DNA of 64,000 nt from Escherichia coli (GTDB taxonomy: Bacteria; Pseudomonadota; Gammaproteobacteria; Enterobacterales; Enterobacteriaceae): assembly GCF_045037415.1 (NCBI RefSeq), contig NZ_CP173438.1; one strand, 5' to 3'. Every line of letters starts with the position of its first letter. Within the stretch, counting starts at the first letter, position 1. Below the pieces are notes generated by a model, which made no database searches, was not told where the DNA came from, and was given only the letters and a program-made list of their open reading frames with translations. Made by a program: the position numbers and the translations under genes. Shown one piece after another: positions 14,452 to 14,663 of this stretch.

Positions 14452-14573
14452 AACGCTTCCCCACGACCTCTTCGTGGTGACTATCATAACCTGATTTGAT
14501 TTCAGCTTCAGAAAAAAGGGCAAAAACTTGTACTTTCATCAGGTTATCAAATGTCCTGTGATCGCCATCGCAT

Positions 14574-14595
14574 ATCAACCAACTAGATGGTTGAT
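14574..14595. promoter_or_regulatory. Candidate TetR operator: perfect 8-6-8 palindrome in the TetR / SDR-operon divergent intergenic region
   Basis: atcaacca-actaga-tggttgat, ending 68 nt upstream of the SDR ATG (14664). Two further inverted repeats lie in the same region (ccacga...tcgtgg near 14461-14477; ataacctgat / atcaggttat near 14486-14495 and 14538-14547). Confidence 0.5.
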
Positions 14596-14663
14596 CTTTT
14601 TATCCTCCAGTCGCAAGCTAATCATCACTAAGGAAACAAAATTCAAAAAAAGAGAGCTATTGT

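Follow-up and report, generated by a model that had tools for sequence, protein, structure and literature searches.

The 212-bp intergenic region at positions 14452-14663 of a 64,000-nucleotide stretch of the Escherichia coli chromosome (the whole of this stretch is called the window in the following) separates the gene for a TetR-family regulator from a divergently oriented operon, whose first gene codes for a short-chain dehydrogenase/reductase (SDR). The region contains a 22-bp palindrome, located at 14574-14595, which is proposed here to be the operator of the TetR protein, overlapping a weak promoter dependent on CRP (cAMP receptor protein); a ligand would then release TetR. Judging from the sequence data, the probability of this reading is set at about 0.72. 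Support for the putative operator comes from the statistics of the palindrome and from its conservation in orthologous loci.

A 22-bp palindrome in the control region

The palindrome, ATCAACCAACT/AGATGGTTGAT, is formed by two perfect 8-nt arms, ATCAACCA and TGGTTGAT, separated by actaga, and lies 68 nt from the ATG of the SDR gene. The central CTAG pairs too, which extends the symmetry to 22 bp, with 10 of the 11 pairs matched; the two half-sites have their centres 11 bp from each other, close to one turn of the helix. When the 212 bp were shuffled with preservation of the dinucleotides, 3.9% of the shuffles contained 8-nt arms pairing perfectly across a loop of no more than 10 nt, and 0.25% contained a 22-bp palindrome in which one pair or none was mismatched. 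The sequence at 14574-14595 is the sole palindrome of the latter type in the window, 0.77 being expected per shuffled window. No second copy of the operator was found in the 64 kb, even when up to 3 mismatches were allowed.

A first-pass annotation, produced from the letters of the window, had listed three inverted repeats between the two genes: the palindrome, a long-range repeat and a hairpin close to the TetR start codon. All three are present where it had placed them, and its values for the length of the region and for the distance to the SDR gene are correct. Their conservation is very different, as described below.

Conservation of the palindrome

Orthologues were gathered by tracing homologues of the TetR protein, showing 57-88% identity, to the contigs encoding them; scanning contigs with the TetR alignment gave 9 loci only. 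They derive from Salmonella, Citrobacter, Klebsiella spallanzanii, Lelliottia, Leminorella, Entomohabitans, E. albertii, E. whittamii and several metagenomic contigs, while a Halomonas homologue (L014, 34% identity) was dropped for its different gene context. In every contig long enough to show the neighbours, a divergent TetR gene is followed on the other side by the order SDR, TIM barrel, enoyl-CoA hydratase and CoA-transferase, even where the surroundings differ. Three sets of sequences were used: six E. coli alleles, covering 213 intergenic alignment columns, for the within-species comparison; 14 orthologous loci for the cross-genus alignment; and 28 fetched loci for a pattern search.

The other E. 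coli alleles are 82-85% identical to the window over the intergenic region; the locus is therefore unusually polymorphic for the species, which makes footprinting within E. coli informative. Fifty-seven of the 213 columns vary among the six alleles, against one of 22 within the palindrome (a central T/C at 14584), and both arms are invariant. By permutation, the probability of such conservation is P = 0.007 for the 22-nt window of the palindrome, specified in advance.

In the 14-locus alignment the palindrome is the best-conserved 22-nt window, with an identity of 0.89-0.92, compared to 0.65 for the region. The first-pass annotation had named lack of conservation in orthologous loci as a result that would speak against an operator, and the palindrome turned out to be conserved there. 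The two segments AACCAAC and GGTTGAT show an identity of 0.99, whereas the centre drifts, reading CTAGAT, CCAGAT, CTATTT or CCGATC; the combination of invariant arms and a drifting centre delimits a constrained symmetric core, AACCA-N6-TGGTT, at 14577-14592. Of the 28 fetched loci, 22 contain the pattern AACCAAC-N5-GGTTG, its relative position being unchanged, and each has a single copy, except one metagenomic locus (L023) where it occurs twice. The loci without it are K-12, unrelated or distant ones, and one in which a single base has changed.

Two loci are of particular use. Strain EC05 carries a highly divergent allele, with an intergenic region of 366 bp, and the only segment of it that BLAST aligns to the window is the 22-bp palindrome, at 100% identity. 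In L023, whose TetR protein is 59% identical to that of the window, the second operator-like palindrome, AACCAACCGAATGGTTGG, is found at 3825-3844, 4 nt 3' of the predicted -10.

The CRP site

A CRP site, TGTGAtcgccaTCGCA, is located at 14557-14572, with its centre at 14564/14565, and is identified by consensus match, by conservation and by chromatin immunoprecipitation sequencing (ChIP-seq) of its orthologue. It matches 9 of the 10 core positions, and no other site in the 64 kb comes within one mismatch of TGTGA-N6-TCACA. Each of the 14 aligned loci has a CRP-like box at the corresponding position, and so do Entomohabitans and strain EC05; in Leminorella the core is perfect. The centre of the box lies 20 bp 5' of the centre of the palindrome, and the spacing is 19-20 bp in every genus examined.

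The orthologous site has been detected by CRP ChIP-seq in the enterotoxigenic E. coli (ETEC) strain H10407, where a high-confidence peak at 4940903 is reported with the site TGTGATCACTATCGCA, is assigned to ETEC_4557/ETEC_4558 and is labelled "ETEC-specific/ytfA" (PMC4287617, Table 1). H10407 has the same TetR/SDR divergon, and TGTGATCACTATCGCA, contained in the TetR/SDR intergenic region, is the orthologue of 14557-14572. Occupancy by CRP in vivo is thus shown for the orthologous site, in ETEC H10407 rather than in the strain of the window. At both sites that were checked, this one and yjfY/rpsF, the peak coordinates of PMC4287617 are about 190-197 bp below the listed site positions in NC_017633.1; when corrected for the offset, the centre of the ETEC peak falls within about 7 bp of the TGTGATCACTATCGCA site. 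The offset matters to anyone mapping the peaks of that study.

In Entomohabitans teleogrylli (L012, about 4700-4990), about 215 bp of additional G+C-rich sequence set the CRP box further away from the TetR gene; the module is intact from the CRP box through the operator, the -35 and the 17-nt spacer to the -10.

Predicted promoters

A -35 hexamer, TTGATC, is predicted for the operon at 14591-14596 on the plus strand, mostly inside the right arm of the palindrome, with an identity of 0.98 over the 14 loci. The corresponding -10, CAAGCT, is weak and is predicted at 14614-14619 on the same strand, exactly 17 nt after TTGATC in 14/14 loci; a transcription start site (TSS) would be located near 14626. 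The -35 reads TTGTTC, TTGATA or TTGATT in single loci. The -10 has the form CAnnnT (CAAGCT in E. coli, CATCTT or CATTTT elsewhere, TAAGTT once), its positions 2 (A) and 6 (T) being invariant, while the sequence of the 17-nt spacer drifts, with an identity of 0.66. A spacer that is constant in length, at 17 nt, and free in sequence is what characterises a sigma-70 promoter, and the same -35/-10 arrangement is found in Entomohabitans and EC05. The overlap with a promoter that the first-pass annotation had expected from the distance to the SDR gene is thus borne out at the level of the predicted elements, since the palindrome covers the conserved -35 hexamer.

The right outer bases of the palindrome, GATC, are conserved at 0.96 in the 14 loci, against 0.67 for the mirror bases ATC on the left. 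This indicates that the right arm is probably under an extra constraint, doubling as operator arm and -35. With a TSS near 14626, CRP would be centred at about -61.5, a class I position, and the operator at about -41.5.

For the tetR gene, a -10 hexamer, TATGAT, is predicted at 14483-14488 on the minus strand, with a TSS near 14476; TATnnT is invariant in the 14 loci, and the hexamer reads TATAAT or TATAGT in distant loci. Neither this -10 nor the CRP box had been noticed in the first-pass account of the region. The leader of the tetR transcript would be about 25 nt long. The operator is about 100 bp away from the tetR -10, near -108, which makes simple autorepression by occlusion unlikely. 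Minus-strand promoters using a TTGATA located in the left arm or in GTTATCAAAT were considered and rejected, for their poor partner hexamers, GTTTTT and GACATT, and for the lack of conservation of the left outer bases.

On the way from the tetR promoter to the CRP box, two other blocks, GTTATCAAAT at 14542-14551 and AAAAAGG at 14513-14519, do not vary among the E. coli alleles and are kept in part in Salmonella, Citrobacter and Klebsiella. They might serve the tetR promoter, as an UP element or as its -35 context, or be the site of another factor.

The regulator protein

Domain content and predicted fold both place the regulator in the TetR family. The protein contains a TetR-type helix-turn-helix (HTH) domain, PF00440, at residues 19-61 (53.6 bits, with a cut-off of 24; E = 1.9e-14), and a C-terminal domain, PF17938 (TetR_C_29), scoring 106 bits (E = 1.8e-30). 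Its AlphaFold2 model has 12 helices and a predicted local distance difference test score (pLDDT) of 90.9, and the top 50 Foldseek matches of the model in the PDB are all TetR-family proteins, the best being 3npi, with a template modelling (TM) score of 0.78. The HTH region is nearly invariant in orthologues, down to 57% overall identity, and the TetR gene is the only regulator gene kept beside the operon in all loci.

The structural comparison does not discriminate a ligand class: 3npi is followed by the E. coli uracil-binding protein RutR (Foldseek ranks 3-5) and by the acyl-CoA sensors PfmR and FadR. The structural neighbours thus include both acyl-CoA sensors and a uracil sensor; the CoA (coenzyme A) ester suggested as ligand in the first-pass annotation is a guess. 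No TetR model of NCBIfam reached its cut-off for the regulator. Identity with KstR2, an automatic label carried by some Salmonella entries, was rejected, the phmmer match to 4w97/4w1u having an E value of 8e-6 (28.8 bits) and the Foldseek match ranking 46th, with 18% identity and a TM score of 0.52. Identity with RutR was rejected as well: the protein scores 37.8 bits against an equivalog cut-off of 368, and the half-sites of the palindrome are separated by a spacer of 6 nt instead of 2, which marks the regulator as a paralogue and not an orthologue.

Proposed mechanism

In the mechanism that we infer, including the binding of TetR, both TSSs, the direction of regulation and the ligand, the divergently encoded TetR protein, corresponding to full-length YtfA, would bind 14574-14595, probably as one dimer. 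Sitting at about -41.5, it would block RNA polymerase at the weak sigma-70 promoter. The operon promoter would be activated by cAMP-CRP bound to 14557-14572, at about -61.5, CRP being needed because the -10 is poor. The operon would accordingly be on only without glucose and in the presence of an inducer freeing TetR; candidates for this inducer are the organic acid that is transported and a CoA thioester derived from it. The tetR gene would probably be expressed from its own promoter, independently of the operator.

Several points weigh against this proposal. The assignment of the palindrome to TetR rests on adjacency and conservation, and, considering E. coli alone, some equally conserved 22-nt window was obtained in 29% of the permutations, so that the case for an operator depends on the cross-genus data. 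The conservation of the right arm is partly due to the -35 itself. A consensus scan of the region called no sigma-70 promoter, TTGATC matching the consensus at 4/6 positions and CAAGCT, which is weak, at 2/6; such a miss is expected, because the promoter would be activator-dependent. In a possible class II geometry, CRP would lie at -41.5, with GATCTT at 14593-14598 as the -10 and a TSS near 14605. This -10 is less conserved, its final T being lost in Lelliottia and Leminorella, and the operator overlaps the core promoter under either geometry. On the ligand side, the nearest solved structure, 3npi, is that of an uncharacterised Corynebacterium diphtheriae protein.

Alternative explanations

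Keeping TetR as the protein bound to the palindrome, the repressor could act as an anti-activator, contacting or displacing CRP as CytR does, and gating in this way a CoA-dependent organic-acid pathway in gut Enterobacterales. The location of the operator between the CRP box and the -35, with the two centres 20 bp apart (about two turns, hence on the same face) and a nearly fixed spacing, could point to anti-activation. We consider this mode of action rather unlikely.

Binding of the palindrome by a different protein, a global or unlinked regulator, instead of the adjacent TetR is an unlikely explanation. It is true that conservation reveals merely some sequence-specific constraint on the palindrome, and not which protein imposes it, and that the ACCA/TGGT half-sites resemble the box of the TetR paralogue RutR, TTGACCAnnTGGTCAA (PMC2475637); RutR, however, requires the 2-nt spacer. 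TetR alone travels with the palindrome in all contexts, including loci outside the ytfB-rplI neighbourhood, and the palindrome is found once per locus, with nothing like it elsewhere in the window at the mismatch level given above. We know of no other E. coli regulator whose motif matches the palindrome.

The palindrome might also be conserved merely as promoter architecture, namely as a -35 with its upstream contacts, the symmetry being incidental. The position of TTGATC within the right arm and the better conservation of the right outer bases would fit with this. The left arm segment AACCAAC (14577-14583, about -49 to -43), however, has no role in a promoter and yet is among the 0.99-conserved segments, and the AACCA/TGGTT symmetry is retained in every locus, even where the centre changes from CTAGAT to CTATTT or CCGATC. 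The second copy in L023, being downstream of the -10, cannot be a -35, and argues for a protein site over a promoter element. Incidental symmetry is thus quite improbable.

It is very unlikely that the palindrome works at the RNA level, as an intrinsic terminator or attenuator on the plus strand. A scan flags a terminator-like 8-bp stem followed by CTTTTTAT, and the RNA folds at -9 kcal/mol with a z-score of -2.9, but only 3 of the 8 stem pairs are G-C, and the T-run is missing in Lelliottia (CTAATT), L023 (CATAAA) and EC05 (TTAAAT). The arms are invariant instead of covarying, and no Rfam family matches the 212-bp region. Furthermore, the palindrome is located 5' of the conserved -10, thus probably outside the operon transcript, and no co-directional upstream gene ends there, so that only antisense read-through of tetR would be available for termination.

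Finally, the first-pass annotation had regarded the three inverted repeats as an operator set, with the long-range repeat and the hairpin as additional TetR sites or, for the hairpin, as a switch occluding the ribosome-binding site; the palindrome stands as a putative operator, with its conserved, invariant arms, while the other two elements are not conserved, and a multi-operator arrangement appears very improbable in spite of the unusual perfection of the long-range repeat in the window allele and of a faint likeness of its AACC/GGTT to the operator half-sites.

The long-range repeat and the start-codon hairpin

The 10-nt long-range inverted repeat is formed by a left arm, ATAACCTGAT, at 14486-14495, and a right arm, ATCAGGTTAT, at 14538-14547. 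Its arms match at 10/10 positions, with 42 nt between them, which is reached by chance with a p-value of about 0.0075 in shuffles. The repeat is perfect in the window and in E. whittamii; in the other E. coli alleles and in Salmonella it is down to 7/10 complementary positions, with no compensatory changes, and must be regarded as allele-specific. Partial conservation of its left arm is explained by the overlap with the -10 of the TetR gene.

The hairpin CCACGA-cctct-TCGTGG, at 14461-14477, is present in the window and not conserved. As RNA, it has a folding energy of -9.7 kcal/mol and a z-score of -0.78, 46 of 200 shuffles folding equally well. The right arm is lost in one group of E. coli alleles and the left arm in another; no equivalent was found in three orthologues that were folded, and the mean cross-genus identity is 0.48-0.52. 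If tetR transcription starts near 14476, as predicted, its transcript may lack the 5' arm of the hairpin altogether. Neither the long-range repeat nor the hairpin is a credible second operator or ribosome-binding site switch.

The locus and the operon

The window belongs to the E. coli chromosome, and positions 13800-15460 are 100% identical to many complete genomes. In the RefSeq annotation of these identical strains the same genes are found, ytfB, a TetR/AcrR family regulator and a 3-ketoacyl-ACP reductase, and the limits of the intergenic region agree, the start codon of the TetR gene being the ATG at 14451 on the minus strand and that of the SDR gene the ATG at 14664. The TetR-family regulator gene, identified by PF00440, PF17938 and RefSeq, extends from 13804 to 14451 on the minus strand, codes for 215 amino acids and is the full-length form of the K-12 pseudogene ytfA. 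Its probable Shine-Dalgarno sequence, GGGGAAG on the mRNA, is located at 14458-14464 on the minus strand, within a run (14456-14464) that is invariant in the six E. coli alleles; GGAG-type counterparts are found in distant loci. For the first gene of the operon, a Shine-Dalgarno sequence is recognised in the AGAGAGC region at 14651-14657 on the plus strand, 7-13 nt 5' of the ATG; here the run 14648-14654 is invariant in the E. coli alleles.

The operon consists of six genes and extends from 14664 to 22083 on the plus strand. Its products are the SDR (14664-15455), a xylose-isomerase-like TIM barrel, an enoyl-CoA hydratase, a fused family-I CoA-transferase, a 690-residue flavoprotein of the FAD_binding_2 type (fumarate-reductase-like) and a DgoT-like transporter of the major facilitator superfamily (anion:cation symporter), whose gene ends at 22083. 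The gene content suggests that the operon processes an imported organic acid by a CoA-dependent route similar to beta-oxidation.

The control region was found in about 3,133 of 5,426 complete E. coli genomes (~58%), always as a single copy. The operon is syntenic in Salmonella, and occurs also in Citrobacter, Klebsiella and others. K-12 has yjfZ in place of the operon and of the entire control region, and its ytfA (b4205), beside ytfB, is a 3' remnant of the TetR gene (3195-3596 in L028, corresponding to 4427694-4428095 in NC_000913.3). The control module is regarded as ancestral in enteric bacteria, E. coli K-12 having lost it. According to a survey of TetR regulators, ytfA is present in only part of the E. 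coli strains (PMC6790063), and a 2025 preprint reports CRISPR interference (CRISPRi) phenotypes for K-12 ytfA, still treated as a partially characterised pseudogene. Literature searches on the regulator, its binding site or the operon returned no dedicated paper, only surveys listing ytfA, the CRP ChIP-seq table and the K-12 CRISPRi note, in agreement with the first-pass description of the regulator as uncharacterised. The system has escaped study because K-12 carries only the pseudogene.

Within E. coli, the ytfB-TetR-operon locus (13146-16240 of the window; L002-L006 and L029) is hyper-polymorphic. Identity to the window allele is 80-97% for the TetR coding sequence, 82-85% for the intergenic region and 77-99.8% for ytfB; upstream, between fklB and ytfB, the intergenic sequence shows 99-100% identity in 4 of the 5 alleles compared. 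This pattern of sequence identities suggests that old haplotypes or introgression may be involved. The convergent 3' ends of ytfB and of the TetR gene overlap by 17 nt (13804-13820) in the window allele; in the allele group at 86%, a TetR gene shortened by 9 nt directly adjoins ytfB, with no overlap.

Two insertion sequences were met in the locus: in strain UID2309220015 (NZ_CM142692.1) the TetR gene is interrupted by an IS1 element, and a frameshifted IS5 transposase is found within the operon of strain EC05 (L029, 4668-5473). The two strains could serve as natural knockouts of the regulator and of the operon, respectively. Elsewhere in the window, three tandem tRNA-Gly(GCC) genes, about 111 nt apart, form a glyVXY-type cluster at 58191-58489 on the minus strand, which accounts for the repeated CGACCTTG palindromes in the palindrome census.

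Discussion

The regulatory design is conventional, being that of a standard TetR divergon with the CRP-plus-repressor logic of many catabolic operons. In common with the classical TetR divergons, such as TetR/tetO of Tn10, AcrR/acrAB and QacR/qacA, the locus has a divergent gene for a presumed repressor of the TetR fold and a putative palindromic operator over the core promoter of the target, and derepression by a ligand would be expected. It differs from them in having a single operator, about 100 bp from the -10 of the regulator, so that autoregulation is not evident, in controlling a catabolic CoA-dependent operon instead of an efflux pump, and in the predicted need for CRP.

A second likeness is to class I CRP promoters that are also subject to a repressor. 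In lac, CRP acts from the class I position at -61.5 together with LacI, whose site is at +11; in deoP2, CytR works by anti-activation. The control region described here shares with these systems a CRP site about 61.5 bp 5' of the presumed TSS, a weak promoter and a putative site for the pathway repressor that adjoins or overlaps that of the polymerase, and the resulting logic, "no glucose AND inducer present", would be of the lac type. The repressor site is not at +11, as in lac, but between CRP and the -35, its centre being 20 bp from that of CRP.

Among proteins of the family, RutR is the closest structural neighbour that is functionally characterised. Its box, 5'-TTGACCAnnTGGTCAA-3' (PMC2475637), has the same ACCA/TGGT half-sites, and differs from the palindrome in the spacer (2 nt instead of 6) and in the flanks (TTGACCA instead of TCAACCA). 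Similarity to acyl-CoA sensors, namely FadR of Bacillus subtilis and B. halodurans, PfmR of Thermus thermophilus and KstR2 of Mycobacterium tuberculosis, extends past the HTH into the ligand domain (residues about 11-155), and the operon both makes and processes CoA thioesters. The similarity is weak, with E values from 1e-11 to 8e-6 and 18-24% identity, and no better than that to RutR.

The CRP site had been published before; what appears to be new is the assignment of the operator, the mapping of the promoters and the conservation across genera. The analysis provides a precise map on which the core of the operator, the CRP site, the two predicted promoters and their spacing are placed. The regulator and its operator could serve as an orthogonal TetR/operator pair. 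The more interesting question is which organic acid is degraded by this widespread operon, lost in K-12; the operator, together with the regulator, could be a handle for finding the inducer, and hence the substrate of the operon.

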